Source of the DNA: Erythrobacter sp.
Lineage (GTDB): Bacteria > Pseudomonadota > Alphaproteobacteria > Sphingomonadales > Sphingomonadaceae
Assembly (NCBI GenBank): GCA_027311945.1
Contig: DAICXZ010000009.1
Location: forward strand, 114,243 to 178,242
Length of the DNA: 64,000 nucleotides
Reading direction: 5' to 3'
Shown here: positions 13,507 to 64,000 of the stretch, piece by piece
Numbering within the stretch: position 1 is the stretch's first letter
Layout of the letters: each line of letters begins with the position of its first letter
The notes under the pieces: model-generated
What the model was told of the DNA's origin: nothing
What the model saw: only the letters and a program-made list of their open reading frames with translations
Database searches by the model: none
Made by a program: the position numbers and the translations under genes

Positions 13507-13672
13507 TTATAATTGAGCCGCCAACCACTTTCGTCTGTAGGGAACCCTTGCACTTGGCTCACGTATGGTTAGAGCGCGCTAGCGGCCGGGCCCCTCTGGC
13601 GAGCATGTGCTCGTGATGTCGGACGCTTCAACAGGGGCCGTTTCGCAATGCGGCCCTCAGTAACAGGGACCA

Positions 13673-14473
13673 TTGATGGACATCCTCGCCCTCCTTTCCG
13701 ATCCCGGCGCATGGCTCGCGCTGCTTACGCTGATTGCGCTCGAAGTCGTGCTCGGGATCGACAACCTCATCTTCATCGCCATTCTCTCGAACAAGCTGCC
13801 CGTGCACCAGCAGCAGCGCGCACGCCGCATCGGCCTCGCGCTGGCCCTGGTGATGCGGATTGGCCTGCTGATGCTGATCGGGTGGCTGGTCACCTTGCAG
13901 GCGCCGCTGTTCGATCTCGGCATCCGCGGTGCCCCCGGCCCCTATGGCGAGCCAACCTTCGATACCGCTTTCTCGGGCCGTGACCTGATCCTTCTGGCAG
14001 GCGGCCTGTTCCTGCTATGGAAGGCCACCAAGGAGATTCACCACTCGATGGAGCCGGAAGACCAGTCGGGCGATCTGCTGGATAAGACCCCCGGTGTGGC
14101 TGCTGCGGCCACGGCCACCTTCGGCACGGTGATCCTGCAGATCGTGGCGATCGACATGGTGTTCTCGGTCGATTCAATCCTCACCGCCGTTGGCATGACC
14201 GACGAGATCCCGATCATGGTCACGGCCGTTGTGATCACCGTGGGCGTCATGATGTTGGCGGCCGATCCGCTGTCAAAGTTCATCGAGAAGAACCCGACGC
14301 TGGTGATGTTGGCGCTGGCCTTCCTCGTAATGATCGGCCTCGTGCTGATCGCCGATGGCTTCGGCGTCCACGTGCCGAAGGGCTACATCTATGCGGCGAT
14401 GGGCTTCTCTGTCGGCGTGGAAATGCTCAACATGGTGCAGCGGAACCGGCGCGCGAAAAAGGCTCTGAACTAG
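13673..14473 (+). CDS. TerC family integral membrane protein
   Basis: 266 aa. Contains [16 protein letters not shown] and a second half-repeat with [10 protein letters not shown], typical of the TerC/YoaE-type family. Confidence 0.85.
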
Positions 14474-29142: not shown

Positions 29143-29227
29143 TGGTACCTCCGGCCGGACTCGAACCGGCACTTCCGAAGAAACTCGATTTTGAGTCGAG
29201 CGCGTCTACCAATTCCGCCACGGAGGC
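29143..29227 (-). tRNA. tRNA-Leu (anticodon CAA)
   Basis: The minus strand reads GCCTCCGTGGCGGAATTGGTAGACGCGCTCGACTCAAAATCGAGTTTCTTCGGAAGTGCCGGTTCGAGTCCGGCCGGAGGTACCA. It folds as a cloverleaf with a 7-bp acceptor stem, anticodon loop CUCAAAA, a long variable arm, T-loop TTCGAGT and an encoded CCA. Confidence 0.88.
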
Positions 29228-47572: not shown

Positions 47573-47583
47573 GGGAGCCTCGC

Positions 47584-50365: not shown

Positions 50366-51423
50366 CAGCCCAGCCCCCGCGCGATCACCGGCCCGAGCCG
50401 GTTCGCCACGGCCAGTGGCAGCTGCTTCCATGCGGCAATGCGCGACTGGTGCTGCGGGCTGAGCGGATCGGCATCGCGCGCTTCGCAGCCGGGCACGGTC
50501 CATTCGGCATAGGTCAGCGGCTGCGGCTCGAAACCCCAGGTCTTCTTGTAGGCATAGGGGCCGGTGCCTGTCTTGCTACGTCCGAAGTCGAACTCGGTGC
50601 AGCCCTTGCGGCGGGCATGGCACATCAGATCGTAATACATCCGATCGTTGCTGCGCAGGCGGCGCGCGGCATGGGTGCCGCCGCCCCAATAGGGCATCAC
50701 GGTTCCGCTGTGATAGAACGAGAGCACCGAGGACACCGGCACGCCTTGGTGGCGCACCGTCAGGATATCGGCATCGAGGGCATCGAGCACCGCATCGAAC
50801 AGGCTGCGCGGAAACACCGGCGTGCCCAGATTGCGCACGCTTTCAGCATAGACGGCATAGTGCGCCGCCCGGTCGCTCTCGTCGCGGCCGATGGTCACTT
50901 CCAGCTCTGCGCCGAGGCTCTTGCGCACTTCGGCGCGCTGCTTGCGCGGGATCGCGGCGAGCTGCGCCTCATCGTCTTCCGCGAGTGGCATAACGAACCC
51001 GCAATAACGCTCGGTGAGCAAGTCCCACCCGGCGCGCGCCGGTCCTCCCCGCAGCTCCACGCTGGAGCACGAGAGCCGCTGCGCCAGTTCCTCGACCGCC
51101 TCGATCAGAAGCTCGGCCACGTGGTCCTCCACCGTCAGCACGCCGCCACCCACGGCAAAGCCTGAAGAGGCCAGCGTCCGCCCGAAAATCGGCGAGTGCA
51201 GTTCGGTCAGCGGCATCCAGCCGGTAAGCGCACTCGCGCGCTCGGCAATCAGGCCCAGCGCCCTCTGCCCGGTGCCCTGCTCTACGGCATGGAGCCATCG
51301 CGGGCGATGAAACACTGTGCCGCTGTGCAGCGCCACAAAGGCCTCGATCCGCGCGCACTCGTCGGGTTGCGACAAATCGGCAAGGCGCACTGTGTCGGCT
51401 ATCATGGCGAACGGCGCGGTCAT
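50365..51423 (-). CDS. FemAB-family protein, PEP-CTERM-system-associated
   Basis: 352 aa. It has the features of an acyl-CoA N-acyltransferase/FemAB-like fold and sits at the position this family occupies in XrtA loci. Stop and start overlaps exist with both neighbours. Confidence 0.7.
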   Translation of the reverse strand: MTAPFAMIADTVRLADLSQPDECARIEAFVALHSGTVFHRPRWLHAVEQGTGQRALGLIAERASALTGWMPLTELHSPIFGRTLASSGFAVGGGVLTVEDHVAELLIEAVEELAQRLSCSSVELRGGPARAGWDLLTERYCGFVMPLAEDDEAQLAAIPRKQRAEVRKSLGAELEVTIGRDESDRAAHYAVYAESVRNLGTPVFPRSLFDAVLDALDADILTVRHQGVPVSSVLSFYHSGTVMPYWGGGTHAARRLRSNDRMYYDLMCHARRKGCTEFDFGRSKTGTGPYAYKKTWGFEPQPLTYAEWTVPGCEARDADPLSPQHQSRIAAWKQLPLAVANRLGPVIARGLG

Positions 51424-52322
51424 GCCGCCGCGTCCAGCCTCGCTGCCTCGCGCGCGACAACCATATCGACCCGGTCCCAGGCAAACTCGTTCACGACGCG
51501 CGAAAGTTTGCCCGCCATCCGGTCAAGATTGGTGTAGTGCCGAAAACGCGAACGCAGCGGGGCATCGGCCACGCGCGGCTGATCGGGGTCCACTTCCCAC
51601 GGGTGGAAGTAGAAGATCGCCGGCCGCCCCTCGCGCTGGTTCACTTGGCGGATCGCCCAGCGGCTGAATTGATAGGGCAGCACGCGGAAGAACCCGCCGC
51701 CGCCAGCGGCAATGCGCCTGCTGCCAAGCATTGCCGTGGTGACCGGCAGTTCGATAAGGTCTGCATCGGCCAGCGGCCGGAACGCAAAGCGCGGTGCCTC
51801 GGGCCAACCATAGTGATCGTGCGCCACCGGGGCCACGCTCGACGAATAGGTGTAGCCCTGTTCGGCCAGCACTTCGAACGCCCAAGGGTTGCGCTTGTCG
51901 ATGGAAAAGCTCGGCGCGCGATAACCCTGCACCGCAGTCCCGCCCGCATCTTCCAGCACACCGCGCGCGTGCGCAAGATCCTCGGCAAATTGCTCGCGCG
52001 TGAGCGAGAACACGCGTGCATGGTCCCAGCCATGGCTGGCGATCTCGTGCCCTGCTTCGGCAATGCGGCGGATCAGCCCTTTGTGCCGTTCGGCCACCCA
52101 GCCCAGCGTGAAGAACGTGGCCTTCACCTGCGCTTCGTCGAACATGGCAAGGATCGCCTCGACATTGCGCTCCACCCGGTCCTCCAGCGAGGGCCAGCTA
52201 TCGCGCTCGATCACCTTTTCAAAGGCGCCGACCTGAAACCAGTCTTCGACATCGACCGACAAGGCATTGACCACCTTCGCGGCGGCTGCCTTGCCCTCGC
52301 GGGCGGCACGATCTGGCGCCAT
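51420..52322 (-). CDS. Polysaccharide deacetylase, PEP-CTERM-locus subfamily
   Basis: Contains LSVDVEDWFQV and IASHGWDH (NodB-type motifs). The start is either 52322 or 52394. Confidence 0.8.
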   Translation of the reverse strand: MAPDRAAREGKAAAAKVVNALSVDVEDWFQVGAFEKVIERDSWPSLEDRVERNVEAILAMFDEAQVKATFFTLGWVAERHKGLIRRIAEAGHEIASHGWDHARVFSLTREQFAEDLAHARGVLEDAGGTAVQGYRAPSFSIDKRNPWAFEVLAEQGYTYSSSVAPVAHDHYGWPEAPRFAFRPLADADLIELPVTTAMLGSRRIAAGGGGFFRVLPYQFSRWAIRQVNQREGRPAIFYFHPWEVDPDQPRVADAPLRSRFRHYTNLDRMAGKLSRVVNEFAWDRVDMVVAREAARLDAAA

Positions 52323-52354
52323 CGCGTTCACCTTGCCCTGCCCCCTGTCGCCGA

Positions 52355-53617
52355 TCAGGCGGCCTTGCTCGAATCTATCTCGGCCTCGATCCACTCGATC
52401 AGCATCGAGAGGGTCTGGCGAATGGTGCGCTCCTGCTCGAAGGCGCGTGCTTCGAGCTTCGACATCTCGGCGCGCATGGCCTCGATTTCTGGCGCGAGCA
52501 GACGCTTGACGCTCTCCTCCGCCTGACCCGACAAATCGAGGACGGCATGTTGCAGCTCGGCAATCTGCTCGCGAATGCTCTCCTGATCGGACTCGGACAC
52601 GGGCGCTCTTTCTGCCTTGGCCGCCAGCTCGTCGAGCGCCTCGCCAAGTTCAGCAATGCGCACATCGCGTTCGGCCAGCAGGTCGTCGATCAGCTGCGGA
52701 TCTATGGCGGGCTGAGCAACCTGTTCGCTAGGCGGCGCGGGTTCCTGCTGGGCTGAGGCGGGATGCGCGAACACCTGCGCGCCGGCAACCGGCGCAAGAT
52801 GGGAAGTCTCCGCTGCCATCTCGGCCAGAACCTGATCGAGCAATGCGAGGTCGATCACCTCGATCCGGTCAAGCGAACCGAGCATCAGCACGCGGTTGAC
52901 GATCTGGTTGACCTTGCGCGGAATGCCGCCGCTGGCCTCGTAAAGTTCGTCGAAAACGCCCTCGTCAAACTGCGGGTTGCCGTGCCAGCCCGCCTTCTGG
53001 AGCCGGTGCAGCACATATGGCTCCACCTCCTCCGGCTGCATCGGGTCGAGATGATGCGCGGCGATAATGCGCTGGCGCAGCTGTTCGAGCGAGGGTTCGT
53101 TCTGCAAGGTCGCGCGGAACTCGGGCTGGCCGAGCAGCAGCACCTGCAGCAGCGGATGGCTGCCAAGCTGGAAGTTCGACAGCATCCGCAGCTCTTCAAG
53201 CGCCGACACCGACAGGTTCTGCGATTCGTCCACCACCAGCAGGCAGCGACGGCCCGCGCGCGCCTCATCGTGCAGGAAGGCCTCGATCTCGCCCAGCGCG
53301 GTCGCCTTGTCATGCCCCGCCACCGCCAGACCGAAGGCCCGGGCGACAACGTGGACGATCTCCTCGCCATCGAGGTGGCTGGTGACGACCTGCGCGACCG
53401 TCACCTGATTCTCGTCGAGGCTGCGGATCGTGTGTGCGACCAGCGTCGACTTGCCCGCGCCGATCTCGCCGGTGATGACGATGAAGCCCTCGCCCTGGGC
53501 CAGGCCATAGCCAAGGTATGACAGCGCCTTGCGATGCGTGGTGCTGCGGAAGTAGAACTCCGGATCGGGGGTCAGCTGGAAGGGCTTCGCGGTGAAGCCG
53601 TAGAATTCGTCGTGCAT
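52355..53617 (-). CDS. XrtA/PEP-CTERM-system-associated AAA ATPase (ExeA/GspA-like)
   Basis: 420 aa with Walker A GEIGAGKST and Walker B LLVVDESQ. The C-terminal part is predicted to be coiled coil. Confidence 0.8.
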   Translation of the reverse strand: MHDEFYGFTAKPFQLTPDPEFYFRSTTHRKALSYLGYGLAQGEGFIVITGEIGAGKSTLVAHTIRSLDENQVTVAQVVTSHLDGEEIVHVVARAFGLAVAGHDKATALGEIEAFLHDEARAGRRCLLVVDESQNLSVSALEELRMLSNFQLGSHPLLQVLLLGQPEFRATLQNEPSLEQLRQRIIAAHHLDPMQPEEVEPYVLHRLQKAGWHGNPQFDEGVFDELYEASGGIPRKVNQIVNRVLMLGSLDRIEVIDLALLDQVLAEMAAETSHLAPVAGAQVFAHPASAQQEPAPPSEQVAQPAIDPQLIDDLLAERDVRIAELGEALDELAAKAERAPVSESDQESIREQIAELQHAVLDLSGQAEESVKRLLAPEIEAMRAEMSKLEARAFEQERTIRQTLSMLIEWIEAEIDSSKAA

Positions 53618-53637
53618 CTGTGAACTCCCGTAGTCCG

Positions 53638-55284
53638 TCAGAATGAATAGCGCAGGCCGAGCAGGGCCGATGCAGAGGTGTAATCGGGCAGGCTTTCGCG
53701 CGTAATGCCGTCGAGGCCGACGGCTGCCGTGCCGCTGAGGCCTGCAATGATGGATCTATAATATGAAACGCTTGCGCTGTAACCGAGCGAGCCGCCAGCG
53801 TTATCGAGTCCAGTTTCGAACCATGACCCCGTGGCATTGAAGTTGAGGCTCGAGCGGCGGTCAAGCTGCCGGCTCGCATAGGCCGAGACCCAGAAATTCT
53901 CGTCGGTGAGGCCATCGAGCGCGCCCAGCACCGTGCCCGCCGCCGCGATATATTTGCGCCGGTCGTAGCCGAGCCCGAGGCCAAGCTGGGTGCGGCCCAT
54001 GGCGTGGGCGAAGGTGGCGCTGACGCCGCGGCGCCGGTAAATCGCCGAGCGCAGCGAACCGAGCCCGGCCAGCGTGCAGTTCTCGCCCTCGAGGCTGCCG
54101 ACGCAGCCGCCAAGATCGCCGGTCACCGGATTGCGGATCGCCTCGAAGTTGGTGCTGAGCCCGTTGAGCGAATTCGCTATCTGCCCGCCGAAGCCGGTGA
54201 TGTTGTCGTAGACCGAGAGACCGACCGAGGTGTTCGCGCTCGGCGCATAGGACAGCGAGCCGTAATAGGTCATCGAATCGTAACGGCGGCCCACGGTGGC
54301 GGTCAGGCTGGTGCGGCGGCTGGGCCGCCACATCACGCCCACATCCCAGATCAGCCCGTCGGTTTCATAGGCGATCTGGCGTGGCTGGCTCTCGTCGGTA
54401 ACGAAGCGGCCATCCGGGCCGACCACCGGGTTGCCATCGCCATCACGCAAGGCATCGCGGCTCGAAACTTCGACGTCCTCATAACCCACGCCGCCGATCA
54501 GCGCGACTTCGCGCGTTACCGGCACGGTGACGTCGGCGCGCACGTGGCGGTCGTCGACCCGCTGGTCGAGATTGGAGATGTCCTGCCGGTTCCAGCCCGC
54601 GCCCACGCCAAGCCCGACAGGTAGTACCATATCGGGTGCAATTCCGGCGCGCAGGCTGGCCGCCTGGCTCACACTGTCGTCAAACACGTCGACCAGGTCG
54701 CCGTTCGATGAGGTCGGCACAACGTCGGGCGAATCGACCCGCGAGTAGCCGATCAGGTAGGTTCCGCTGACTTCGACATCGCCCACATTCGTCTGCAGGC
54801 TGGGGCCGGCATAGACCGAGTAAATTTGCGTGGTTGAATCCGAATTGGCGCCATAGCCGCCGATAGAGGCCGCGCCATTGCGGTCGATCCGGGTCCGTGC
54901 CGCCATGCCGCCCGCTTCAAGCGTGAGCGCCTGCGGCACCAGCGCGAGCGACCCGCGCGCAACGCCGGTAAGGGTGTCGACATCGGCGACATTGTCGTCC
55001 CACCCGATCGAGCGTTCGTAACGCAGCGACACCGATGCGGCCGAATTGCGCCCGGAAATCGCCGCATCCACACCGGCGCCAAGCCGGGTGTAGGTGAAGA
55101 CGTCGGAACCCGGCTGAAGCTCGGCGGTGACGACCTGGGCGGCCTCGATATAGGGCGTGATATTGGCCCGGCTCCTGCGCTCGCCACTGGTATCGTCATC
55201 GCGCGCCAGTGCAGGTGTTGCGGCCACAGTGATCATAGCAGCAGCCAGAGCAGCGGAGTGACGGAGGCTGTGCATCATGCTCAT
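53638..55284 (-). CDS. PEP-CTERM-system-associated outer membrane beta-barrel protein
   Basis: 548 aa. It has a signal peptide (AATPALA), alternating beta-strand-like composition, and a C-terminal ...LGLRYSF ending in Phe, as in outer membrane proteins. Confidence 0.65.
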   Translation of the reverse strand: MSMMHSLRHSAALAAAMITVAATPALARDDDTSGERRSRANITPYIEAAQVVTAELQPGSDVFTYTRLGAGVDAAISGRNSAASVSLRYERSIGWDDNVADVDTLTGVARGSLALVPQALTLEAGGMAARTRIDRNGAASIGGYGANSDSTTQIYSVYAGPSLQTNVGDVEVSGTYLIGYSRVDSPDVVPTSSNGDLVDVFDDSVSQAASLRAGIAPDMVLPVGLGVGAGWNRQDISNLDQRVDDRHVRADVTVPVTREVALIGGVGYEDVEVSSRDALRDGDGNPVVGPDGRFVTDESQPRQIAYETDGLIWDVGVMWRPSRRTSLTATVGRRYDSMTYYGSLSYAPSANTSVGLSVYDNITGFGGQIANSLNGLSTNFEAIRNPVTGDLGGCVGSLEGENCTLAGLGSLRSAIYRRRGVSATFAHAMGRTQLGLGLGYDRRKYIAAAGTVLGALDGLTDENFWVSAYASRQLDRRSSLNFNATGSWFETGLDNAGGSLGYSASVSYYRSIIAGLSGTAAVGLDGITRESLPDYTSASALLGLRYSF

Positions 55285-56270
55285 ACCTCCTGCCCGTAAT
55301 AGGTGCCGAAGCGGCGGCCGCTGGGGCTGAAGTGCGCCGCGTTGAGCAGCAACTTGATATCGGGGCAGGCCGACAGCAGCGTGAGCGCGTCTTCCAGCGC
55401 CGTCTGGCCGGTACGGTCGGCGCGGGTCACGACGATAGCCTGGCCGACATGGCGGGCCAGCTCCGCCGCCGGAGAAGCCGCCAGCGCCGGGGGCGAATCG
55501 AAGATGACGATCCGGTTGGGTTCGCCCGCCGTCAGCCGGTCAAGCATTTGCGCGGTGCGGGCGCTGGCGAGAAACTCGCTGTCCGAATTGGTCTGGTTGC
55601 CCGCAGGAAGCACCAGCAGACCGGCGATGTCGGTCTCGATGATGCAGTCTTCCAGCTCGACATCGGGATTGGCGAGCACGTCCATCAGGCCAAGGCTGCT
55701 CGACAGGCCGAGCGTGGAGAGGATCGAAGGCTTGGCAAAGTCGGCATCGACCAGCAGCACTTCGCTGTCCTTCTCCGCCGCCATGGCCAGTGCCAGATTG
55801 GTGGCGCAGAAGGTCTTGCCCTCGCCAGGCAGCGGCGAGCATACCAGCACCCGCTGAGCACGCGCGCCCTTGCCCGCATCGAGCGCCTTGCGCACCGAAC
55901 CCAGCACCTGCCGCTTCACGATGCGGAATTCCTCCAGCAGGCCGGTCACCTGACCTTCGGGCTGGATCAGACCGGCCCGTTGCAGCTGTTCGCGGTCGAT
56001 CGGCTCGATGCGGCCCGAGAGGTGCAGCGGCTGGCTATCCGTTGGAGCGGGCGCAGCCGCGTCGGCGACGAGCGCCTCAGCTTTTCGCGGGGTCGACTGC
56101 GGGGCAGCCGCAGAAACAGGGCGTTCGGCACGCTTCGGGGCCTGCCGGTTCACCGGGCGCGCAAGCTCGCTCGGGACAGGAGCCGCGCGCAGATCGTCCG
56201 CGCCCCAGACATCCTCTTCGCGGTCGAACAGCGAGCGGCCGGGACCGGGTATCTTGCTCTGGTCGGTCAT
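55281..56270 (-). CDS. XrtA-associated tyrosine autokinase (CpsD/CapB family)
   Basis: 329 aa with Walker A SPLPGEGKTF, Walker A' LLVDAD and a C-terminal GTYYGQ. Confidence 0.75.
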   Translation of the reverse strand: MTDQSKIPGPGRSLFDREEDVWGADDLRAAPVPSELARPVNRQAPKRAERPVSAAAPQSTPRKAEALVADAAAPAPTDSQPLHLSGRIEPIDREQLQRAGLIQPEGQVTGLLEEFRIVKRQVLGSVRKALDAGKGARAQRVLVCSPLPGEGKTFCATNLALAMAAEKDSEVLLVDADFAKPSILSTLGLSSSLGLMDVLANPDVELEDCIIETDIAGLLVLPAGNQTNSDSEFLASARTAQMLDRLTAGEPNRIVIFDSPPALAASPAAELARHVGQAIVVTRADRTGQTALEDALTLLSACPDIKLLLNAAHFSPSGRRFGTYYGQEV

Positions 56271-56280
56271 GCGTAGATCC

Positions 56281-57849
56281 TCATGCCACCAGCCCGCGCT
56301 GGACGAATTCGAGCCCCATCAGGATCACAAACAGCAGCCCTAGTCCGCCGACACCGGCAGCGAAATACTTGAGACGCCTTGCGCGCAGCGCACGGCCTGC
56401 GGGGGTGAACACATGCGACACCGTGCCGATTACCGGCAGCCCGATCTCGCGTTCGAGCTGGCTGGCCGTGGCAAAGGTGGAGCCGAGCTTGGACAGGGCA
56501 AAGGCCGTTGCCGCCCCGGCCCCCAGCCCCACGATCAGCACGCCCAGCAGCAGCAGCGGACGGTTGGGCGCAGCGGGCTTGCGCGGCGTGCTTGGCGGGT
56601 CGATCACTTCGAACTTGATCGCGCTGTTCTCGCTCTCGACATCGCCGCGCAGGCGCAGTTGTTCGCGGTCGTTCAGCAGGTCGTCGTAGCGCTTGCGCAG
56701 CACGTCATAGTCGCGGCTGATGCGCTGGGCCTCGGCGGTCGCACCCGGCTCGCGGGCAAGGCTGCTGTTGATCGACGCGATTTCGGACCGCAGCGCCGCT
56801 GCGCGCGAAGTGAGTGCCTGCACATTGGCCTCGCGCTCGACCAGCATCGACTGGAGCGAACTGAAAGCCGGATTGAGCGCCCCGCCACTGCCGGGGCCGG
56901 AGCGCTGGACTGTGGCGCGCAGGTTCGCCACCGTGCGCTGCGCTGCCATCAGGTCGGGATGTTCGGGGGTCAGCCCGCGTGCCTGCAGCGCGGCAAGGTT
57001 CGCCTCGGCCTGCGCCAAGGCAGCCTGCGGCCCGCCCGAATTGGCGGAAATGATCGTGCGCGGCGTGCTGGCTAGCTGACCGCGCAGCGCCGCAAGCGCG
57101 CTCTGAGCGGCGGCAAGGTCGGCCTCGACGCTGCGCAGTTCGTTGCGCGCCGCGCTCATCTGCGAGGCGATCGCGGCTGAACCGCCCACCAGATCGGGGT
57201 TGGCCGCTTCGAATGCGAGCCGACGTTCCTCGGCCTTCGCCAGTTCCGCCTCGCGTTCGGCAAGCTGCTGGTCGGGGAAGGCAATCGACTGCTGCACCTC
57301 GCCGCGCGCGCCGCCGAGGTTTTCCTCGCGGAAGATGTCGATCATCCGCTGGGTGATGGTCTGCGCCAGCTCCGCGTTCTCGCGGTCGGAGAAGTCACCG
57401 CGGCCCATCTTTGCCGAAATCTCGAAGATGTTCTCGCCCTGGCTCTCGACCGTTATTTCCTCGGCCAGCTTGGTGGTCGCGGCCTCCATTTCTGCCGGGG
57501 TGGTGACGGCATCGCCAAGCCGGGTGGCGCGCACGACCTTCTCGAGATTCACCGAGCTTACCAGCGTCTGGCGGATGCGGTCGATATCGCGCTCGCGACT
57601 GGCCGAACCGATGCCGATCTGATCGGCCAGAAGGTCGTCGAGCTGGACGAAGATGCGCGTTTCGCTCTCATAGGCGTTGGGGATCAGCGCCACGGCAAGC
57701 CAGCCCAGCAGGCAGATGCCCCAGGCTATGCCCAGCGCCAGCCAGCGGCGGTTCCACACCGCCCAGATCGCTGCCCGCGCTTCTTCCAGAAGGTGATTCA
57801 AGCCCCCCGCCTCCGGTTCAGAACATGCTTTCCGGGATGATGATGACAT
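56281..57849 (-). CDS. Polysaccharide chain length determinant (PCP/Wzz-type), XrtA system
   Basis: 522 aa with an N-terminal and a C-terminal TM segment flanking a long coiled-coil periplasmic region. Confidence 0.75.
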   Translation of the reverse strand: MSSSSRKACSEPEAGGLNHLLEEARAAIWAVWNRRWLALGIAWGICLLGWLAVALIPNAYESETRIFVQLDDLLADQIGIGSASRERDIDRIRQTLVSSVNLEKVVRATRLGDAVTTPAEMEAATTKLAEEITVESQGENIFEISAKMGRGDFSDRENAELAQTITQRMIDIFREENLGGARGEVQQSIAFPDQQLAEREAELAKAEERRLAFEAANPDLVGGSAAIASQMSAARNELRSVEADLAAAQSALAALRGQLASTPRTIISANSGGPQAALAQAEANLAALQARGLTPEHPDLMAAQRTVANLRATVQRSGPGSGGALNPAFSSLQSMLVEREANVQALTSRAAALRSEIASINSSLAREPGATAEAQRISRDYDVLRKRYDDLLNDREQLRLRGDVESENSAIKFEVIDPPSTPRKPAAPNRPLLLLGVLIVGLGAGAATAFALSKLGSTFATASQLEREIGLPVIGTVSHVFTPAGRALRARRLKYFAAGVGGLGLLFVILMGLEFVQRGLVA

Positions 57850-58459
57850 CGCCCGGCATCAGCATCACGTTGGCATCGCTGTCGCCCTTGCGCAGCAGAT
57901 CGGACAGGCGCAACGAATATTCGGCCTGGCTGCCACTTTCGCGGTCGAACCGGATCAGCTTGGCCCGGTTGCCCGCCGCGTATTCGCTGAGGCCGCCCAC
58001 CGCGATCATTGCATCGAGCAGCGTCATGTTCGCGCGGTAAGGCAGCGAAGCGGGCTGCTCGGTTGCGCCGACGATGCGGACCTGCTGGCTGAAGGTGCCG
58101 GCAAACTTGTTGACGATGACGGTGACCAGCGGCTCCTCGATATATTGCGAGAGCTGCAGGCGGATGTCTTCGGCGAGCATGGTCGGGGTCTTGCCCACGG
58201 CGGGCATATCCTCGACCAGCGGGGTGCTGATGCGCCCGTCGGGCCGCACCTGCACCGAAGCGCCCAGTTCGTCGTTACGCCACACGTGGATGGTCAATTC
58301 GTCAAGCGGACCAATGACATATTCCTCGCCCGGGCCTTCCTGCATGGCCACGAACCGCGCTGGTTCGAGCTGCGGCGCGCTGCTGGTGGCGCAGCCGCCC
58401 AGCGTCAGCGCAAGGGCCGCACCTGCAAGAGAGAGACGGGCGATTTGTGTCGTTCGCAT
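57818..58459 (-). CDS. Polysaccharide export protein (Wza/OPX family), XrtA system
   Basis: The internal start gives MRTTQIARLSLAGAALALTLGGC (a lipobox). Poly_export motifs follow (YVIGPLDELTIHVW, GDVIIIPE). Confidence 0.8.
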   Translation of the reverse strand: MRTTQIARLSLAGAALALTLGGCATSSAPQLEPARFVAMQEGPGEEYVIGPLDELTIHVWRNDELGASVQVRPDGRISTPLVEDMPAVGKTPTMLAEDIRLQLSQYIEEPLVTVIVNKFAGTFSQQVRIVGATEQPASLPYRANMTLLDAMIAVGGLSEYAAGNRAKLIRFDRESGSQAEYSLRLSDLLRKGDSDANVMLMPGDVIIIPESMF

Positions 58460-58659
58460 CGAAAGTCCTTCACGTGGTCGGGCCCGTGATGCAGCAGAGG
58501 CAAGCCCCATGCACCAGCAAAGCCCGTGGATCCGCGGTCGCTTCTCACCAAAAAGGGTGAACATTGCGTTAGTTTTGCGCCCGAACCCGCCGGAATGGCG
58601 GGCTTTATCTCGCCCCGTGCCAAATAGGGACGACTTGTTGAGCTCCGGTAAAGAGCCCG

Positions 58660-59886
58660 TCAGACCAACACTTCGGCGGCCGGCCCCTGCCCCAGGAATG
58701 TCGCCGGACTCGCGCTGGCGCCATAGGCCCCGGCGCAGAATACGGCGACCAGATCGCCCACTTCGGCATGCGGAAGCAAGGCATTGTCGGCCAGCCGGTC
58801 AAGCGGGGTGCACAGGCACCCGACGACGCTTACCTCTTCCTCGCCGGGCGCATCGAACCTGCTGGCAATGGCGAGCGGGTAGTTGCGCCGTACCACCGCG
58901 CCAAAGTTGCCCGAAGCTGCGAGCTGGTGATGCAGCCCTCCGTCGGTGACGAGATAGGTCGTGCCATGGCTGACCTTGCGGTCGACGATGCGGGTCAGGT
59001 AGACCCCCGCCTCACCCACGAGATAGCGGCCCAGTTCGATGGCAAACTTCGTCTCCCGCAGCCGTTCGGGCAGTTGAGCCAATTGTGCCCCCAATGCGGA
59101 GCCGATTGACGCGATATCCAGCGGCGTGTCCTTGTCGAAATAGGGGATACCGAAACCGCCGCCCATGTTGAGATGCGGCACGGCGACGCCCGCCTCTTCG
59201 CCCAGCCTTGCGGCCAGAGCGATGACATTGGCCTGCGTCTCCATGATGGCCGAAGCGTCGAGCGCCTGACTGCCGGTATAGATGTGAAAGCCGCGCCAGT
59301 CCGCGCCTTCGTCGACGATCCTTCGCGCAAGGGCTGGCACCTGCTCCTCGTCGATCCCGAACGGCTTTGCCCCTCCCCCCATCTTCATGCCGGAGCCGCG
59401 CATCTCGAACCCCGGATTGACCCGGATTGCGAGGCGCGGCTTGACCGACAGCGCCTTGCCCATGGCCAGCGCACGCGAAATTTCGCCTTCGCTTTCGCAG
59501 TTTAGCGTGACCCCGGTGGTGATCGCGGCCTTCAGCTCGGTATCGCGCTTGCCCGGCCCTGCGAAGCTGATTTCGCGCGGGAGGTAGCCTGCCTTCCGGG
59601 CGATCTCCAGCTCTCCGCCCGAGGCAATATCGAGCCCGTCGACCAGTTCCGCCAGATGTTGCAGCAGCGGCGGATAGGGGTTCGCCTTCATCGCATAGTG
59701 GATGCTGAGTTGCTCGGGCATGGCGGCGCGCAAAGCCGCAACCCGTGCCTCGACGATGTCGCGCGAATAGACGAACAGCGGCGTCCGCCGTGCCTCCTTC
59801 ACCAGCGCCGACACCTTGCGCCCGCCGATCGCGAGTTCACCATCGATGGCGGTGTAGTCTGCCGGAATGGGACCGAGCGGCTTCAT
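58660..59886 (-). CDS. PLP-dependent decarboxylase (Orn/DAP/Arg decarboxylase fold), exosortase A-associated
   Basis: From the ATG at 59886 the translation is MKPLGPIPADY..., with YAMKANP (the PLP lysine), GGGFGIPY and CGPLC-like CLCTPLD. The start overlaps the ligase stop. Confidence 0.85.
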   Translation of the reverse strand: MKPLGPIPADYTAIDGELAIGGRKVSALVKEARRTPLFVYSRDIVEARVAALRAAMPEQLSIHYAMKANPYPPLLQHLAELVDGLDIASGGELEIARKAGYLPREISFAGPGKRDTELKAAITTGVTLNCESEGEISRALAMGKALSVKPRLAIRVNPGFEMRGSGMKMGGGAKPFGIDEEQVPALARRIVDEGADWRGFHIYTGSQALDASAIMETQANVIALAARLGEEAGVAVPHLNMGGGFGIPYFDKDTPLDIASIGSALGAQLAQLPERLRETKFAIELGRYLVGEAGVYLTRIVDRKVSHGTTYLVTDGGLHHQLAASGNFGAVVRRNYPLAIASRFDAPGEEEVSVVGCLCTPLDRLADNALLPHAEVGDLVAVFCAGAYGASASPATFLGQGPAAEVLV

Positions 59887-61397
59887 GAATGTTCCTTCGC
59901 GAGCGCAGCGCGGTCGATCTTGCCGTTGGGATTCAAGGGCATGGCCTCGATCCACCGGATTGCCGCCGGCTGCATGAAATTGGGCAGGTCGGCGCGCAGG
60001 GCGGCGCGCAAGGCCTCCTCCTCGCCGCTGCCGCGCACCACCAGATGGATCGCCTGTCCGAGCCGCGCATCGGGCACCCCGAAGGCGACAGCCTCGCTGG
60101 CATGACCGGTGGCGACGGCGGCCTCCTCGATCTCCTGCGGGCTGATGCGGTTGCCCACGCTCTTGATCATGGCATCGGTGCGGCCGACGAAGTGAAGCAG
60201 GCCCAGCTCGTCACGCCGCACCGTATCGCCCGAGAACACCGCCATGCCGCCATAGAGCGAGGCCTTGGGCGCAGGCTTGAACCGTTCTGCGGTGCGCTCC
60301 GGGTCGTTCCAGTAGCCCTGCGCGACCAGCGGCCCGCAATGGACCAGCTCACCCTCGCTCGCCGGCTCGCCCTTTTCGTCGATCACCAGGATTTCGGCGA
60401 AGGGGATCGCGCGGCCCATGGAGGTCGGGTGTTCATCGACCATGGCGGGATCGAGATAGGTCGAGCGGAAGGCTTCGGTGAGGCCATACATCGGGAAGAG
60501 CCGCGCCTCGGGGAACATCCTGCGCAGCGCCCTTACCATATCCTCGGTCAGCGCCCCGCCCGAATTGGTGAGCCGCCGCATCGGCGCGACCGCCTCGGCA
60601 GGCCAGTCCTGCTCGATCAGCTGCACCCACAAGGGCGGGACCGCCGCGAGCGTCGTCACCCCGTGTCGCGCGCAGGCCTTCACCACGTCGCGCGGGGTCA
60701 GATAGTCAAGCGGAACGACGCAACCGCCCGCATACCAGGTTGAGAGCAGCTGGTTCTGGCCATAGTCGAAGCTTAGCGGCAGCACGCCAAGCGTCACGTC
60801 ATCATCTGCCATGCCGAGATAGTGCGCCACGCTTACCGCGCCGAGCCACATGTTGGTATGGCTGAGCATTACCCCCTTTGGCCGCCCGGTGGAGCCGGAG
60901 GTGTAGAGAATGGCCGCGAGAGCATCGGGATCGGCCGTGCTGGGCGGCAGAGCCTCGGCCTCCTGCGCCTCAGCCAGAACCGCCAGGTCCTCTAGCGCCG
61001 TGCAGCCCTCGGGCAGGTCACCCGCTTCGAGCAGTGCCAACCGCGCCTTGTTGCCGAGCAGCAGGCTTGCCCCGCAGTCGGCGAGGATATGCGCCACCTG
61101 CGCGCGCTTGAGCAGCGGGTTGATCGGCACATGGACAAGCCCCGCCCGCGCTGCAGCGAGCGGCATCAGGCAGGTCAGTTCGCCCTTGCCCGCCCAGCTC
61201 GCAACCCGCGCGCCCGGCTCGGGCACCCGCGCCTTGAGCCAGCCCGCCAGCTTGCCCACACGGCTTCTTAAGTCCTTCCAGCTAAGGACCTCGTGCTTGA
61301 GCACCAAGGCTGCGCTATCGTCGCTCCCGCGCAGGGCGAGATGGTCAAGCGGCCACGGCGCTGGATCGGGTTCGAAAAGGTTTGCAGGCTGCTTCAA
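59883..61397 (-). CDS. Acyl-CoA/ACP ligase (AMP-forming, ANL superfamily), exosortase A-associated
   Basis: 504 aa with the AMP-binding motifs YTSGSTGRPKGV, FSGDTVRRD and NPNGKIDR. The apparent start is TTG at 61397. Confidence 0.85.
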   Translation of the reverse strand: MKQPANLFEPDPAPWPLDHLALRGSDDSAALVLKHEVLSWKDLRSRVGKLAGWLKARVPEPGARVASWAGKGELTCLMPLAAARAGLVHVPINPLLKRAQVAHILADCGASLLLGNKARLALLEAGDLPEGCTALEDLAVLAEAQEAEALPPSTADPDALAAILYTSGSTGRPKGVMLSHTNMWLGAVSVAHYLGMADDDVTLGVLPLSFDYGQNQLLSTWYAGGCVVPLDYLTPRDVVKACARHGVTTLAAVPPLWVQLIEQDWPAEAVAPMRRLTNSGGALTEDMVRALRRMFPEARLFPMYGLTEAFRSTYLDPAMVDEHPTSMGRAIPFAEILVIDEKGEPASEGELVHCGPLVAQGYWNDPERTAERFKPAPKASLYGGMAVFSGDTVRRDELGLLHFVGRTDAMIKSVGNRISPQEIEEAAVATGHASEAVAFGVPDARLGQAIHLVVRGSGEEEALRAALRADLPNFMQPAAIRWIEAMPLNPNGKIDRAALAKEHS

Positions 61398-61417
61398 AAG
61401 ATGGGGACTTCTTCGCT

Positions 61418-62404
61418 GTGACGGCGATCAGCTATCACGTCAGTCTTAACGATCTGCAAGCCCAAGGCTGGGCCGAGGCAGGCCCTTTTGCCCGGCCGCG
61501 CTGGTTTGCGCTGCTCGAAGAGGCAGGTAAGCAGCCCTTTCTCGCCTGCGCCAGCCATGGCGACAAGCAGGTCTGCCTGCCGCTTGAGCAGTGCGAGGGA
61601 AGGCTCGTTTCGCTTGCCAACTGGTATGCGTTCACCTGGTCGCCGCTTCACACAGGCGCTTCGCCGGATGCAGACCTTTTACGCGCGCTGGCCCAAGACC
61701 TTTCTCGCCGCAGCCGCCGCGTTGTGCTCCACAAGCTGACCGTGGAAGACGGCAGCGCCGCTCGGCTCGCGCAGGTGTTCCGCCGCACGGGCTGGATCGT
61801 GCTCGACGAGCGCTGCGACGTGAACCACGTGCTCGCCGTGAACGGGCGCAGCTATTCGGAGTATCTCGCGACACGCCCCGGCCAGCTGCGCACCACGCTA
61901 AAACGCAAGGGGCACAAGGTGGAGGTCGCGCTCTCGCAAACGTTCGACCCCAATGACTGGGCCGCCTACGAGGACATCTACGCCGACAGCTGGAAGCCCG
62001 AAGAGGGCGACCCGGCGCTGCTCAAGCGCTTTGCCATCGAGGAAGCCGCAGCGGGCCGGATGCGCTTCGGCATTGCGCGGGCCGAGGGCCATCCGGTCGC
62101 CGCGCAGTTCTGGACCGTGGAGGGCGGCACGGCCTACATCCACAAGCTGGCCCACCGCGAGAGCGCCAAGCCCCTGTCGCCCGGCACCACGCTGTCGGCG
62201 GCACTGTTCGCGCAGGTGATTGACGTCGACAAGGTCGAGCTGGTGGACTTCGGCACCGGCGACGATGGCTACAAGCGCGACTGGATGGAGCAGGTGCGTG
62301 AACGCCGTCGCCTCACCTGCCTCAGGCCCGGTGCACCCGCCAACTGGCCTGAACTGGCCAAGGCCACCGCGCGCAAACTTGTTTCACGGATCAGCCAAGG
62401 CTAA
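61418..62404 (+). CDS. GNAT/FemAB-like N-acyltransferase (BioF2/CelD-like acetyltransferase domain)
   Basis: Its length and pattern (RPRWFALLEEAG...SYSEYLATRPGQLRTTLKRKGHK...GTAYIHKLAHRE) resemble Acetyltransf_6-type proteins. The start is uncertain: GTG at 61418 is preferred over TTG at 61382, which would overlap the ligase start. Confidence 0.62.
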   Translation: MTAISYHVSLNDLQAQGWAEAGPFARPRWFALLEEAGKQPFLACASHGDKQVCLPLEQCEGRLVSLANWYAFTWSPLHTGASPDADLLRALAQDLSRRSRRVVLHKLTVEDGSAARLAQVFRRTGWIVLDERCDVNHVLAVNGRSYSEYLATRPGQLRTTLKRKGHKVEVALSQTFDPNDWAAYEDIYADSWKPEEGDPALLKRFAIEEAAAGRMRFGIARAEGHPVAAQFWTVEGGTAYIHKLAHRESAKPLSPGTTLSAALFAQVIDVDKVELVDFGTGDDGYKRDWMEQVRERRRLTCLRPGAPANWPELAKATARKLVSRISQG

Positions 62405-62416
62405 GGCCCCACCACT

Positions 62417-62710
62417 ATGACGACCAATCTCCCCGCTTCGGTGGCAAATCCCGAAGATACCGACGCTATCCTGCGCTCGATCCTGCGCGACGTGCTGGGC
62501 CTGTCGGACGAGCGCGTTGCCGAGCTTGCCGCTGGCTCGGGCCTGTTCGGCCATATCCCCGAGTTCGACTCGATGGCCGTGGCGGGGCTGCTCACCGAGG
62601 TCGAGGACCGCTGCGACATCCTGATCGAGGACGACGAGGTGGATGGCGACATGCTTGAAACCTACGGCGCCTTGCTCACCTTCGTCAGCACCAAGCGCGC
62701 CGAGGGCTGA
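62417..62710 (+). CDS. Acyl carrier protein
   Basis: 97 aa and acidic, with the phosphopantetheine attachment motif IPEFDSMAVAGLL. Confidence 0.8.
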   Translation: MTTNLPASVANPEDTDAILRSILRDVLGLSDERVAELAAGSGLFGHIPEFDSMAVAGLLTEVEDRCDILIEDDEVDGDMLETYGALLTFVSTKRAEG

Positions 62711-62716
62711 CCGCCT

Positions 62717-63367
62717 GTGCTGACCACTTGGCAACCGCCCGGCGGCAGCGAAGAATTGGCAATCCGCTTTGGCGATGACACCGGCCCTTGTCTGCTGGTG
62801 CTGCCCGCGTGGTTCGACGAGGGCAACAAGACCCGCCACTTCACCATCGAGACAATGCGCCTGCTGGCCGGGCGCGGCGTGCCCAGCGTCCTGCCCGACC
62901 TGCCCGGTTGCAACGAGAGCCTGACCGGCCTTACCGAACAGACGCTCGCCACATGGCGCGAGGCGGCGGCAGCGGCGGCGGCGCAGTTCGGCTGCTCGCA
63001 GGTGCTCGCCATTCGCGCTGGCGCGAACATCGCGCCGGGCCTGCCGGGTTTCGCCTATGCGCCGCTGGCCGGTAAGTCGGCTCTGCGCGCTCTGCTCAGG
63101 GCGCGGACACTGGCGGCCAAGGAGGCTGGCCACCCCGAGACGACCGAGGCCCTGCTCCAGACCGGCAAGGTCGAGGGGCTGGAGCTGGCGGGCTACCATC
63201 TGGGCGCCGCAATGGTTGCCGAGCTCGCCGAAGCGGTGCTTGCGCCGAGCGCACTGGTGCCGCTCGATCCGGGCGGCCCGCTGCTTTGGCTGCGGGCCGA
63301 GCCGGAGCACAACCCCGAGCAAGCTGCCGCTCTGGCTGACCTCATTGCCGAGGGCATGACCGCATGA
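62717..63367 (+). CDS. Alpha/beta-fold protein (hydrolase 2 type of exosortase A loci)
   Basis: 216 aa. The assignment rests on its position and size between the ACP and the second hydrolase-like gene. I found no clear GxSxG nucleophile elbow. Confidence 0.55.
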   Translation: MLTTWQPPGGSEELAIRFGDDTGPCLLVLPAWFDEGNKTRHFTIETMRLLAGRGVPSVLPDLPGCNESLTGLTEQTLATWREAAAAAAAQFGCSQVLAIRAGANIAPGLPGFAYAPLAGKSALRALLRARTLAAKEAGHPETTEALLQTGKVEGLELAGYHLGAAMVAELAEAVLAPSALVPLDPGGPLLWLRAEPEHNPEQAAALADLIAEGMTA

Positions 63368-64000
63368 GCCGCTCGCACTTCACCGTCGACTGCCACGGCG
63401 ACACTCTCGCCTGCACACTCGACGACGGCGCGAGCCCGGTCGGCTTGCTGATCGTCAGCGGCGGCAACGAGACCCGCGCCGGTGCCTTCTCGGGGCAGGC
63501 CCGCCTCGCCGCCCGGATCTCCGAGGCAGGCTACCCGGTGCTGCGCTTCGACCGGCGCGGCGTGGGTGACAGCACCGGTGATAACCTCGGCTTCACCGGC
63601 AGCGCACCCGATATCGCCACCGCCCTGCGCGCCTTCGCTGCGGCCCACCCCGGTCTGCGCCGCGTGGTCGCCTTCGGCAACTGCGATGCGGCCAGCGCAC
63701 TGATGCTCGGCGCGGGGGCCGGGTGCGACGGGCTGGTGCTCGCCAACCCGTGGACCTTCGAGGGCGAAGCCGCTGACGACGCCTCGGCCATGCCCGCCGA
63801 GGCGATCCGGGCGCGCTACGCCGCTTGCCTCAAGGACCCGCGCGAATGGCTCCGCCTGGTGAGTGGCGGGGTCGATCTGCGCAAGCTGGCGCGCGGCCTG
63901 CGCGGGTCGCTGAGCAAGCCTGCCCCGCCCTCGTCGCTGACCGAGGACATGCGCAAGGGGCTGCACCGGTTTACAGGCAACACCCGTATCCTGCTCGCAA
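63364..64000 (+). CDS. Alpha/beta-fold protein (hydrolase 1 type of exosortase A loci), 3' end beyond the window
   Basis: Absent from the ORF track because it runs off the edge. I translated it by hand from the ATG at 63364, which overlaps the upstream stop as ATGA: MSRSHFTVDCHGDTLACTLDD...LLIVSGGNETRAG...RFDRRGVGDSTG...RRVVAFGNCDAASALML. No stop occurs up to position 64000. Confidence 0.6.
   Translation, partial: MSRSHFTVDCHGDTLACTLDDGASPVGLLIVSGGNETRAGAFSGQARLAARISEAGYPVLRFDRRGVGDSTGDNLGFTGSAPDIATALRAFAAAHPGLRRVVAFGNCDAASALMLGAGAGCDGLVLANPWTFEGEAADDASAMPAEAIRARYAACLKDPREWLRLVSGGVDLRKLARGLRGSLSKPAPPSSLTEDMRKGLHRFTGNTRILLA

Follow-up and report, generated by a model that had tools for sequence, protein, structure and literature searches.

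A predicted carrier-protein-dependent aminoacylation module beside the exosortase A exopolysaccharide operon of an Erythrobacter species

Which product do the genes that flank exosortase A (XrtA) operons make? This question is raised by a 64,000-nucleotide stretch of DNA from Erythrobacter sp. (GenBank assembly GCA_027311945.1, contig DAICXZ010000009.1, positions 114,243 to 178,242 of the forward strand), referred to here as the window and numbered from its first letter. Six genes, which begin at 58660 and run past the window end at 64000, adjoin an XrtA/PEP-CTERM-type exopolysaccharide operon and encode an ANL-family adenylating ligase, a pyridoxal phosphate (PLP)-dependent decarboxylase, a Fem-like double-GNAT protein, a stand-alone carrier protein, and two alpha/beta-fold proteins, termed hydr2-like protein and hydr1. 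In a first-pass annotation, these six genes, two ATGA overlaps among them, and the XrtA operon had been described, and all were found in the places given for them by the analysis of open reading frames (ORFs), sequence, and NCBIfam and Pfam matches. The families had also been described as known only as exosortase A-associated markers without a demonstrated product, which agrees with the findings that four of them are NCBIfam "hypothetical equivalogs" (TIGR03098 to TIGR03101) and that full-text literature searches on the family accessions, and on exosortase together with the enzyme names, revealed no product. The module genes are not mentioned by Haft (2006) or in a December 2025 preprint in which the Sphingomonadales XrtA polysaccharide cluster is described as new, and the module is not discussed in the floc-formation and epsSMASH papers. 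We propose, with a probability of roughly 0.5, that the six genes act as a cassette for the carrier-protein-dependent aminoacylation of the XrtA-linked exopolysaccharide.

The decarboxylase gave the most informative evidence. It is encoded at 58660–59886 on the minus strand (408 aa), has the alanine-racemase fold, belongs to the Pfam family of Orn/DAP/Arg decarboxylases, where DAP is diaminopimelate, and scored 593.4 bits against TIGR03099, for which the curated cutoff is 478.45. The nearest solved structure was BtrK (7ru7/2j66), with 237 bits, an E value of 3e-69, and 36% identity over 383 positions, whereas DAP decarboxylase reached 155 bits at most and the Lys/Orn and Orn decarboxylases approximately 94 bits or less. 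The LysA model gave 247 bits, which is under its cutoff of 298, and the models of Lys/Orn and Arg decarboxylases were far lower. BtrK is known to decarboxylate Glu-S-BtrI to 4-aminobutyryl (GABA)-S-BtrI (PMC7857480). In the vicenistatin pathway, 3-methyl-Asp is loaded by VinN, an ANL enzyme, on a stand-alone carrier, VinL, and is decarboxylated by the PLP enzyme VinO only as the thioester; FlvN of fluvirucin biosynthesis performs the same loading with Asp (PMC11284099).

Pairwise alignment of the decarboxylase with BtrK and DAP decarboxylase indicated that the motifs of the PLP site are retained. The E-x-G-R motif is ELGRY in the window protein, ESGRY in BtrK, and EPGRS in DAP decarboxylase. 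At the substrate end, the loop is DGGLHHQLAASGNFG in the window protein, DGGMHHHAASTFRG in BtrK, and AGMNDLIRPSIYNAY in DAP decarboxylase, and the Cys motif is CTPLD, CTPED, and CETGD, respectively. Thus, the window protein has the BtrK-type swaps, that is, HHQLAASGNFG for DLIRPSIYNAY, which is the RxxxY loop, and CTPLD for CETGD. In DAP decarboxylase structures, the Arg and Tyr of the loop, together with the Glu after the Cys, are taken to hold the distal carboxylate and amine of the substrate. In the family alignment, K68 was nearly invariant and H202, E285, C360, and Y389 were invariant; CTP[LI]D was present in all 82 related loci and HH..ASGNF, when searched as a simple pattern, in 60 of the 82.

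A search of 1.84 billion cluster representatives for homologues of the decarboxylase yielded 1387 clusters at E < 1e-30. Some of those with 35–40% identity carry a further domain, which is an AMP-binding ligase before or after the decarboxylase (P0171, P0222, P0259, and P0253), a PP-binding carrier domain (P0211), or a thioesterase of the 4HBT type (P0242). In Amycolatopsis (L070), a homologue with 54% identity adjoins a type I polyketide synthase (PKS) and a SARP regulator, which is a setting typical of VinO-type enzymes. Fusions to Sulfotransfer_3 (P0236 and P0250) and to a 2OG-Fe(II) oxygenase fragment (P0248) were also observed, and they suggest further, different tailoring contexts for this decarboxylase clade. 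The decarboxylase is proposed to be of the BtrK/VinO type, acting on a carrier-tethered amino acid. The decarboxylation of a free diamino or basic amino acid, as predicted in the first-pass annotation, is at variance with the ranking of BtrK (237 bits) over the DAP, Orn, Lys, and Arg decarboxylases (155 bits at most), with the altered substrate-end motifs that the protein has in common with BtrK, and with the fusion of its relatives to a carrier domain.

The ligase is encoded directly upstream on the same strand (59883–61397; 504 aa, with a TTG start at 61397). It scored 632.6 bits against TIGR03098 (curated cutoff 592.35) and 251 bits against the amino-acid adenylation domain model, matched the DltA models at about 1e-45, and carries all core motifs of an adenylation (A) domain, resembling those of nonribosomal peptide synthetases. 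Its top single-domain solved matches were a peptide synthetase (8xjz, 184 bits) and VinN (3wvn, 173 bits). LgrA was rejected as the nearest relative, since its 275 bits are a sum over two A domains (115 + 158). When the substrate pocket was mapped by motif to the numbering of GrsA, the ten specificity positions were read as D235, Y236, N239, A278, T299, S301, M322, R330, S331, and K517. Across 76 orthologues, D235, M322, R330, and K517 were essentially invariant and the pockets fell into two subtypes, DY(N/S)(A/G)TSMRSK and DAS(A/C/G)ATMR(S/A)K, the second having A236 and T301. In VinN, the contacts for 3-methyl-Asp and Asp are D230, F231, and S299, which correspond to D235, A236, and A301 of GrsA, and K330 and R331, which correspond to I330 and C331, are located on a shortened loop (PMC11253843). 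By motif mapping, the D/Y/S/R pattern of the window ligase parallels D230/F231/S299/K330-R331 of VinN.

On-carrier decarboxylation by a PLP enzyme needs a free alpha-amino-acid end, and the tether must hence be made through a second carboxyl group, which points to an amino-dicarboxylic acid as the substrate of the ligase. Among such acids, we infer Asp, which would give a beta-alanyl group, to be the first candidate and Glu, which would give a 4-aminobutyryl group, to be the second, and there may also be a DAP-to-lysyl variant of the same chemistry. A fatty or lipid substrate was considered less likely, because Asp235 is conserved, the pocket resembles that of VinN, and solved A domains rank highest among the matches. 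The N-acylation to a lipo-amino product that had been predicted earlier was not supported, because the ligase is nearest to amino-acid adenylating enzymes and retains Asp235, which binds the amino group, in a VinN-like pocket, so that nothing indicates a fatty acid.

The carrier protein (62417–62710, plus strand; 97 aa) has a DSM motif and could be aligned through this Ser motif to a solved carrier-like protein, 2lki, with an E value of 9e-14; a literature search on 2LKI gave nothing relevant. Ser52 (codon 62570–62572) is the predicted site of phosphopantetheine attachment, and no gene for a phosphopantetheinyl transferase was found in the locus. The earlier view that the module is centered on a carrier protein was supported.

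To place the module in its genomic contexts, the decarboxylase alignment was scanned over 185,579 species-representative genomes, and the window proteins and iterated profiles were searched in the 80 loci obtained. In 74 of the 80, the ligase gene lies immediately before the decarboxylase gene, most exceptions being truncated contigs, and the order carrier-hyd2-hyd1 is kept in the loci of Alpha-, Beta-, and Gammaproteobacteria. The arrangement is not due to chance: dozens of loci from other genomes show the ligase-decarboxylase pair and the carrier-hyd2-hyd1 order. Among the loci of the Sphingomonadales type with full 10-kb flanks, 26 in number, the carrier was present in 25, hyd1 and hyd2 in 21, and the Fem-like gene in 14, and the module abuts the XrtA export operon in 21; in five such loci (L020, L027, L029, L035, and L037), the core stands apart from any XrtA-operon gene. 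None of the 21 full-flank loci of Beta- and Gammaproteobacteria abuts an XrtA operon. In Massilia, a DegT-family sugar aminotransferase gene, which recurs in six loci, lies between the Fem-like gene and the ligase gene, and the module is located among GT2, Wzx, GT4, and Wzy genes. In Burkholderia cenocepacia, Bcam1334, which is of the TIGR03100 type, has been annotated in the Bcam1330-1341 exopolysaccharide cluster, in a paper that does not mention an exosortase (PMC3584217).

The same trio of ligase, decarboxylase, and carrier was also found in Actinoplanes, Micromonospora, and Nocardioides, where the decarboxylase motifs are unchanged and the neighbors are GT4/GT2, Wzy, Wzz, and ABC-transporter genes; these actinobacterial loci lack hydr1, hydr2, and the Fem-like gene, and within 10 kb no gene of an XrtA operon was detected. 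To our knowledge, exosortases are absent from actinobacteria. The common denominator of all these contexts is polysaccharide assembly, not protein sorting. Because the ligase-decarboxylase-carrier core occurs in actinobacterial polysaccharide loci that show no exosortase gene, it looks like a general cassette for polysaccharide decoration, and the distribution makes an obligatory link of this core to XrtA unlikely.

Two further gene arrangements were observed in these loci. In Zoogloea sp. LCSB751 (L065:579-11224), the module is a nine-gene array on one strand, adjoining nuo genes and not an XrtA operon; it encodes a carrier, a fused E1 alpha/beta 2-oxoacid dehydrogenase (663 aa), a lipoyl-E2 acyltransferase (395 aa), hydr2, hydr1, a 282-aa protein, a GT4 glycosyltransferase, the ligase, and the decarboxylase. 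The E1/E2 pair hints at a second way to acylate the carrier; the 2-oxoacid dehydrogenase genes were rejected as a general part of the module, being present only in this locus among the 82. A family of approximately 280–290 aa is encoded directly upstream of the ligase in actinobacterial loci, in a metagenome-assembled genome of Mesorhizobium, and in Zoogloea (L046:7549-8427, L044, L056, L061, and L065:6145-6993). The two members scanned, those of L046 and L065, had no Pfam match, and the Zoogloea member had no NCBIfam match; this family is a candidate for the transferase where hydr1, hydr2, and the Fem-like gene are absent.

The remaining three proteins could serve to transfer the aminoacyl group. 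The Fem-like protein (61418–62404, plus strand; 328 aa) is read from a GTG start at 61418, which was inferred from homologues of 328 aa, and it matched Pfam Acetyltransf_6 at 1e-15. Neither this protein nor the carrier belongs to a named XrtA-associated family, as no XrtA-specific NCBIfam model matched either of them and the Fem-like protein had no NCBIfam match at all. Sequence searches against solved structures gave nothing useful for the Fem-like protein and hydr1, and their folds were predicted instead. The AlphaFold model of the Fem-like protein had a predicted local distance difference test score (pLDDT) of 84 and a predicted template modeling score (pTM) of 0.80. In a Foldseek search with this predicted model, the top structural matches were tandem-GNAT aminoacyl-transferases only, namely, FemX, Sba18/Sbb17, and the MprF synthase domain, with a probability of 1.00, template modeling (TM) scores of 0.57–0.65, and E values of about 1e-12. 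Sba18 and Sbb17 are aminoacyl-tRNA-dependent peptide synthases that acylate an amino sugar, and the MprF domain is an aminoacyl-phosphatidylglycerol synthase. The predicted fold is thus that of a Fem aminoacyl-transferase and not of a simple GNAT using acetyl- or acyl-coenzyme A (CoA). Its donor could be an aminoacyl-tRNA or an aminoacyl-carrier. It is distinct from the TIGR03019 FemAB protein of the window, with which it shares just 23% identity.

Hydr1 is encoded from 63364 on the plus strand to beyond the window end at 64000, and its full length is 269 aa. The 212-aa partial protein within the window scored 192.5 bits against TIGR03100 (cutoff 168.45). Cys107 (codon 63682–63684), Asp215, and His240 form a triad, of which all three residues are invariant in the family, and the Cys lies in a family motif, G-x-C-D-x-A. 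The AlphaFold model (pLDDT 87) is a canonical alpha/beta hydrolase, in which Cys107 is located at the strand-turn-helix elbow, Asp215 after strand 206–212, and His240 after strand 232–235, and the nearest folds by Foldseek were ordinary esterases and lipases. Hydr1 is therefore predicted from this model to be a Cys-Asp-His enzyme, which would be suited to thioester-to-thioester acyl transfer. The Ser in G-x-S-x-G by which serine alpha/beta hydrolases are recognized is replaced by Cys107 in hydr1 and by Arg100 in the hydr2-like protein.

The hydr2-like protein (62717–63367, plus strand; 216 aa, with Arg100 at codon 63014–63016) scored 46.2 bits against TIGR03101, far under the cutoff of 202.75. 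It has in common with true members of TIGR03101, such as the Zoogloea hydr2 (251 bits), the position flanked by the carrier and hydr1 genes and the invariant Arg, and it is best called a short, divergent relative of that family. The members of Sphingomonadales are approximately 70 aa shorter than those of Beta- and Gammaproteobacteria. At the nucleophile position, the family alignments read LWGLRxGALLA for hydr2 and LWGLCDGASAA for hydr1. Profile-profile comparison indicated that the N-terminal halves of the two families are homologous over the first 90 columns only (hhalign probability 89%), and the equivalence of the Cys and the Arg is drawn from the LWGL[C/R]xGA motif in the long forms. The hydr2 family alignment revealed no invariant His and no invariant C-terminal Asp; the invariant residues E35, R40, R100, and R128 suggest a binding rather than a hydrolytic role. 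The gene of the hydr2-like protein invariably lies between those of the carrier and hydr1 and, in the window, shares a translational coupling with the latter, for which reason we suggest that the protein is a non-hydrolytic, non-catalytic partner of hydr1.

On this basis, a three-step pathway is proposed. In step 1, the ligase would adenylate an amino-dicarboxylic acid through its side-chain carboxyl group and thioesterify it to the holo carrier. In step 2, which is the best supported, the PLP decarboxylase would strip the free alpha-carboxylate on the carrier to give beta-alanyl-S-carrier from Asp, or 4-aminobutyryl-S-carrier if the substrate were Glu. In step 3, which is speculative, hydr1 may take the omega-aminoacyl group from the thioester, probably with the catalytically dead, Arg-bearing hydr2-like protein as a partner, and the FemX-like double-GNAT protein may also take part in this lineage, so as to transfer the group to an amino or hydroxyl group of a repeat-unit sugar. 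All six proteins have no obvious signal peptide or membrane span by inspection, and the transfer is hence probably cytoplasmic. The acceptor amine might be supplied by the adjacent polysaccharide deacetylase here and by the DegT aminotransferase in Massilia, which is a conjecture. Alternatively, the Fem-like protein could block the newly formed amine with another amino acid, in parallel to the protecting-group steps of VinM and BtrJ; such capping would make sense because a 4-aminobutyryl thioester is prone to cyclization. The net product would be an exopolysaccharide with a primary-amine substituent, which would be cationic or zwitterionic. Several independent lines make the loading and on-carrier decarboxylation rather probable, and the third step and its polysaccharide acceptor, for which we draw on fold, motif, and synteny, are put forward tentatively, at even odds or somewhat below.

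Several points weigh against this pathway. Its direct basis is gene content, family membership, motifs, folds, and synteny, and the catalytic role of each of the six proteins is drawn from sequence and predicted structure. The identity to BtrK is just 36%, and the chain length of the substrate is not readable from the sequence. The fatty-acid–CoA ligase model scored 243 bits on the ligase, almost level with the adenylation model (251 bits), and the next solved matches of the ligase were malonyl-CoA (MatB-type) and acyl-CoA synthetases with 140–150 bits. The register of its pocket is motif-based, not structure-based, and is possibly off by one in the beta13-beta14 loop. The carrier scored 17.2 bits against Pfam PP-binding, which is under the cutoff of 20.8. 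All Fem-fold enzymes known to us use aminoacyl-tRNA, not acyl-carrier donors, and we know of no report of beta-alanine or GABA in a polysaccharide of these bacteria. Furthermore, the Fem-like gene is missing in many otherwise complete modules and hydr1 and hydr2 are missing in the actinobacterial versions, and this uneven occurrence implies that the transfer step is not identical everywhere.

Among the other explanations, the likeliest, although we consider it improbable, is that the product is a small metabolite, diffusible or bound to the membrane, such as a beta-amino-acid natural product, a signal, or an aminolipid, and that the module is only co-located or co-regulated with polysaccharide genes. 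A stand-alone A enzyme with a carrier and a decarboxylase is typical of natural-product pathways (PMC11284099), the close homologue of the decarboxylase in the PKS cluster of Amycolatopsis is in line with it, as are the five Sphingomonadales cores away from XrtA-operon genes, and another acyltransferase family, the N-acyl amino acid synthases, has been linked to exosortase loci (Craig et al, 2011, as cited in PMC11631085). However, among the module proteins, NCBIfam and Pfam revealed no condensation enzyme, no ketosynthase, and no thioesterase for product release. In addition, the module closely adjoins the export operon in the same orientation in 21 of the 26 Sphingomonadales loci, and it is independently associated with glycosyltransferase, Wzx, Wzy, and DegT genes in Betaproteobacteria and Actinobacteria.

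It is quite unlikely that, as another explanation, free DAP, Orn, Lys, or Arg is decarboxylated to a diamine, which the GNAT protein would N-acylate with a carboxylic or fatty acid loaded by the ligase to yield an acyl-polyamine or lipo-amino compound. The Pfam family of the decarboxylase and the 243 bits of the fatty-acid–CoA ligase model would fit such a route, and so would the locus of Sphingomonas aurea (L020:11444-14270), where a carrier-ligase-decarboxylase trio away from any XrtA gene has a polyamine-type neighborhood consisting of a deoxyhypusine-synthase-like gene and a second Orn/Arg-type decarboxylase (535 aa). Against it are the LysA score of 247 bits under the cutoff of 298 with the Lys/Orn and Arg models far lower, the lead of 80 bits that BtrK has among the solved matches, and the BtrK-like swap of the residues that we take to hold the far end of DAP, together with the occurrence of decarboxylase-carrier fusions, the retention of Asp235 in a VinN-like pocket of the ligase, and the predicted Fem aminoacyl-transferase fold of the "GNAT" protein. 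As for hydr1 polymerizing the omega-aminoacyl thioester to an oligo- or polyamide, or both alpha/beta proteins being editing thioesterases for the carrier, the Cys-Asp-His triad on an alpha/beta fold, which is also the catalytic set of the Cys-dependent polyhydroxyalkanoate (PHA) synthases, the activated bifunctional monomer that the donor would be, and the invariant carrier, hyd2, hyd1 sub-operon would be compatible with it, but it is very improbable, considering that PHA synthases were not among the top 50 Foldseek matches of hydr1, the best of which were esterases and lipases, that there was no sequence sign of polymerase activity, and that both proteins are missing in the actinobacterial versions.

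The aminoacylation pathway proposed here also bears on protein sorting, for which the first-pass annotation had suggested the module as a source of the acceptor. A predicted product with a free primary amine fits this suggestion, and the module may conceivably provide an amine acceptor for the sorting of PEP-CTERM proteins. On the other hand, the core trio is present in actinobacterial polysaccharide loci in which no XrtA-operon gene was detected within 10 kb, the Fem-like gene is missing from many XrtA-adjacent copies, and five Sphingomonadales cores lie off XrtA. In the specific form that the module installs a flexible beta-alanyl or 4-aminobutyryl handle whose primary amine is the nucleophile that resolves the XrtA acyl-enzyme and joins PEP-CTERM proteins covalently to the polymer, we regard the idea as decidedly improbable. 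The handle would be on the exopolysaccharide or a lipid-linked precursor and possibly extended by the Fem-like enzyme, and the arrangement would be a Gram-negative counterpart of the lipid II pentaglycine that is built by FemXAB and serves sortase A.

With respect to gene layout, the ligase and decarboxylase genes are co-directional and read into the XrtA export operon. The ATGA overlap at 59883–59886 (minus strand), as read from the sequence, joins the TGA stop of the ligase to the ATG start of the decarboxylase, which suggests translational coupling. The six genes had been described as head to head, which applies only to the ligase and Fem-like genes, separated by a divergent intergenic region of approximately 20 bp (61398–61417), and not to the co-directional ligase and decarboxylase. 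Similarly, the ATGA coupling described for the plus strand joins the two alpha/beta genes (63364–63367, the stop of the hydr2-like gene and the start of hydr1), whereas the other junctions are gaps of 12 nt between the Fem-like and carrier genes and 6 nt between the carrier and hydr2-like genes. The distance of approximately 20 bp between the TTG at 61397 and the GTG at 61418 implies that both promoters are inside the opposite coding region or that the annotated starts are wrong; a scan of 58300–62500 revealed no sigma-70-like promoter. The same scan gave one hairpin, which is at or below the shuffled expectation, and Rfam had no match in the module region. The hairpin, CCCGCCGGAATGGCGGG, is GC-rich and located at 58586–58602 in the spacer that separates the decarboxylase gene from the export gene; it has a T-containing tail on the plus strand and no T run after it on the coding (minus) strand, and hence it does not look like a terminator that would divide the module from the export operon. 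An exact-protein look-up placed the window on contig NCEO01000011.1 of assembly GCA_002280685.1, a metagenome-assembled genome of Sphingomonadales. Past the window end on this contig, hydr1 is completed at 269 aa and followed by genes for a tRNA methyltransferase, YjeF, and IlvD, and these housekeeping genes directly after hydr1 indicate that the module is complete at exactly six genes.

The XrtA operon (45674–58564, minus strand), which adjoins the decarboxylase directly downstream on the same strand, was delineated by NCBIfam matches and consists of ten genes, seven of which exceeded the curated cutoffs. The ten genes include those of the export protein (TIGR03027), the chain-length determinant (TIGR03007), an ATPase (TIGR03015), the polysaccharide deacetylase (TIGR03006), FemAB (TIGR03019), the stp1 glycosyltransferase, and an amidotransferase (TIGR03108). 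Two proteins fell short of their cutoffs, namely, the tyrosine autokinase with 193 bits (TIGR03018, cutoff 231) and the outer-membrane protein with 43.5 bits (TIGR03016, cutoff 91). XrtA, which matched TIGR03109 exosortase A with 338 bits, is fused to an EpsI domain within a single 524-aa ORF and is 9.5 kb from the ligase-decarboxylase pair. The longest ORF of the downstream amidotransferase overlaps that of XrtA-EpsI by approximately 300 nt (both within 45674–49158), and its start is probably internal, since the TIGR03108 match begins only at residue 106. The XrtA locus is unusually compact, with 16 genes at 45674–64000, of which six are those of the module, and the genes below 45674 are the housekeeping genes of ZapE, SdhB, RNase E, PBP1A, and RF2. 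Genes for Wzx, Wzy, a priming glycosyltransferase, the stp2 glycosyltransferase, and the PrsK/PrsR regulator were not seen in the window, and a regular-expression search of the window, which gives only a weak negative, found no PEP-CTERM tail; these genes must hence be elsewhere in the genome. A terC RNA motif (Rfam, 54 bits; 13578–13631, plus strand) upstream of an ORF at 13673–14473 and a tRNA-Leu(CAA) gene (29143–29227, minus strand) are unrelated to the module.

The proposed pathway resembles several known systems in part. Like that of the butirosin side chain (BtrI, BtrJ, BtrK, BtrH, and BtrG), it has a stand-alone carrier and an alanine-racemase-fold PLP decarboxylase, with an acidic amino acid proposed to be tethered by its side-chain carboxyl group and the omega-aminoacyl group then proposed to be moved to a sugar, which in butirosin is an amino sugar. 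The butirosin pathway uses an ATP-grasp enzyme, BtrJ, for loading and a transferase of another family, BtrH, and it also has a hydroxylase and a deprotection enzyme of the gamma-glutamyl-cyclotransferase type. In contrast, the loading enzyme of the module is an ANL/A-domain ligase, its transfer proteins (the Fem-like protein and the Cys-dependent alpha/beta protein) are unrelated to BtrH, it has no hydroxylase or deprotection enzyme, and its proposed target is a polysaccharide, not an antibiotic. It shares with VinN/VinL/VinO and FlvN/L/O the same three types of protein, namely, an ANL enzyme, a stand-alone carrier, and a PLP decarboxylase, but homology revealed no PKS, VinM-type second ligase, VinK-type acyltransferase, or VinJ-type peptidase in it, and its context is exopolysaccharide export and XrtA in Gram-negative hosts.

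In DltABCD, which D-alanylates teichoic acids, and AlmEFG, which glycylates lipid A, a stand-alone ANL ligase likewise charges a small dedicated carrier, and the aminoacyl group ends on a cell-surface glycopolymer and adds positive charge, as is proposed for the module; AlmEFG is cited as a precedent in PMC11631085. However, no homologue of the DltB MBOAT protein, DltD, or AlmG was present in the six genes or the adjacent operon, and the module would add an on-carrier decarboxylation and use other transfer proteins, so that it is not a member of the Dlt/Alm type. Within the marker families, the window ligase, decarboxylase, and hydr1 exceed the cutoffs of TIGR03098, TIGR03099, and TIGR03100 and adjoin the XrtA operon, and the 216-aa protein is under that of TIGR03101. 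By analogy, the module appears to merge two known logics, the surface aminoacylation of the Dlt/Alm type and the on-carrier decarboxylation of the BtrK/VinO type, with different transfer proteins.

This analysis gives four function-less marker families and two unnamed neighbors a concrete proposed pathway that can be assayed, and it draws attention to an unusual pair of alpha/beta-fold proteins, of which hydr1 has a Cys as the predicted nucleophile and hydr2 an invariant Arg at that position. The on-carrier decarboxylation of the BtrK/VinO type, known from antibiotic pathways, probably operates in the biosynthesis of cell-surface polysaccharides across several phyla. Loci for XrtA-linked exopolysaccharides are widely distributed among bacteria of soil, sludge, and the sea, where they underlie the formation of flocs and biofilms, and, if the pathway is as proposed, a cationic or zwitterionic modification would alter the charge and adhesion of the polymer and possibly the attachment of proteins to it.

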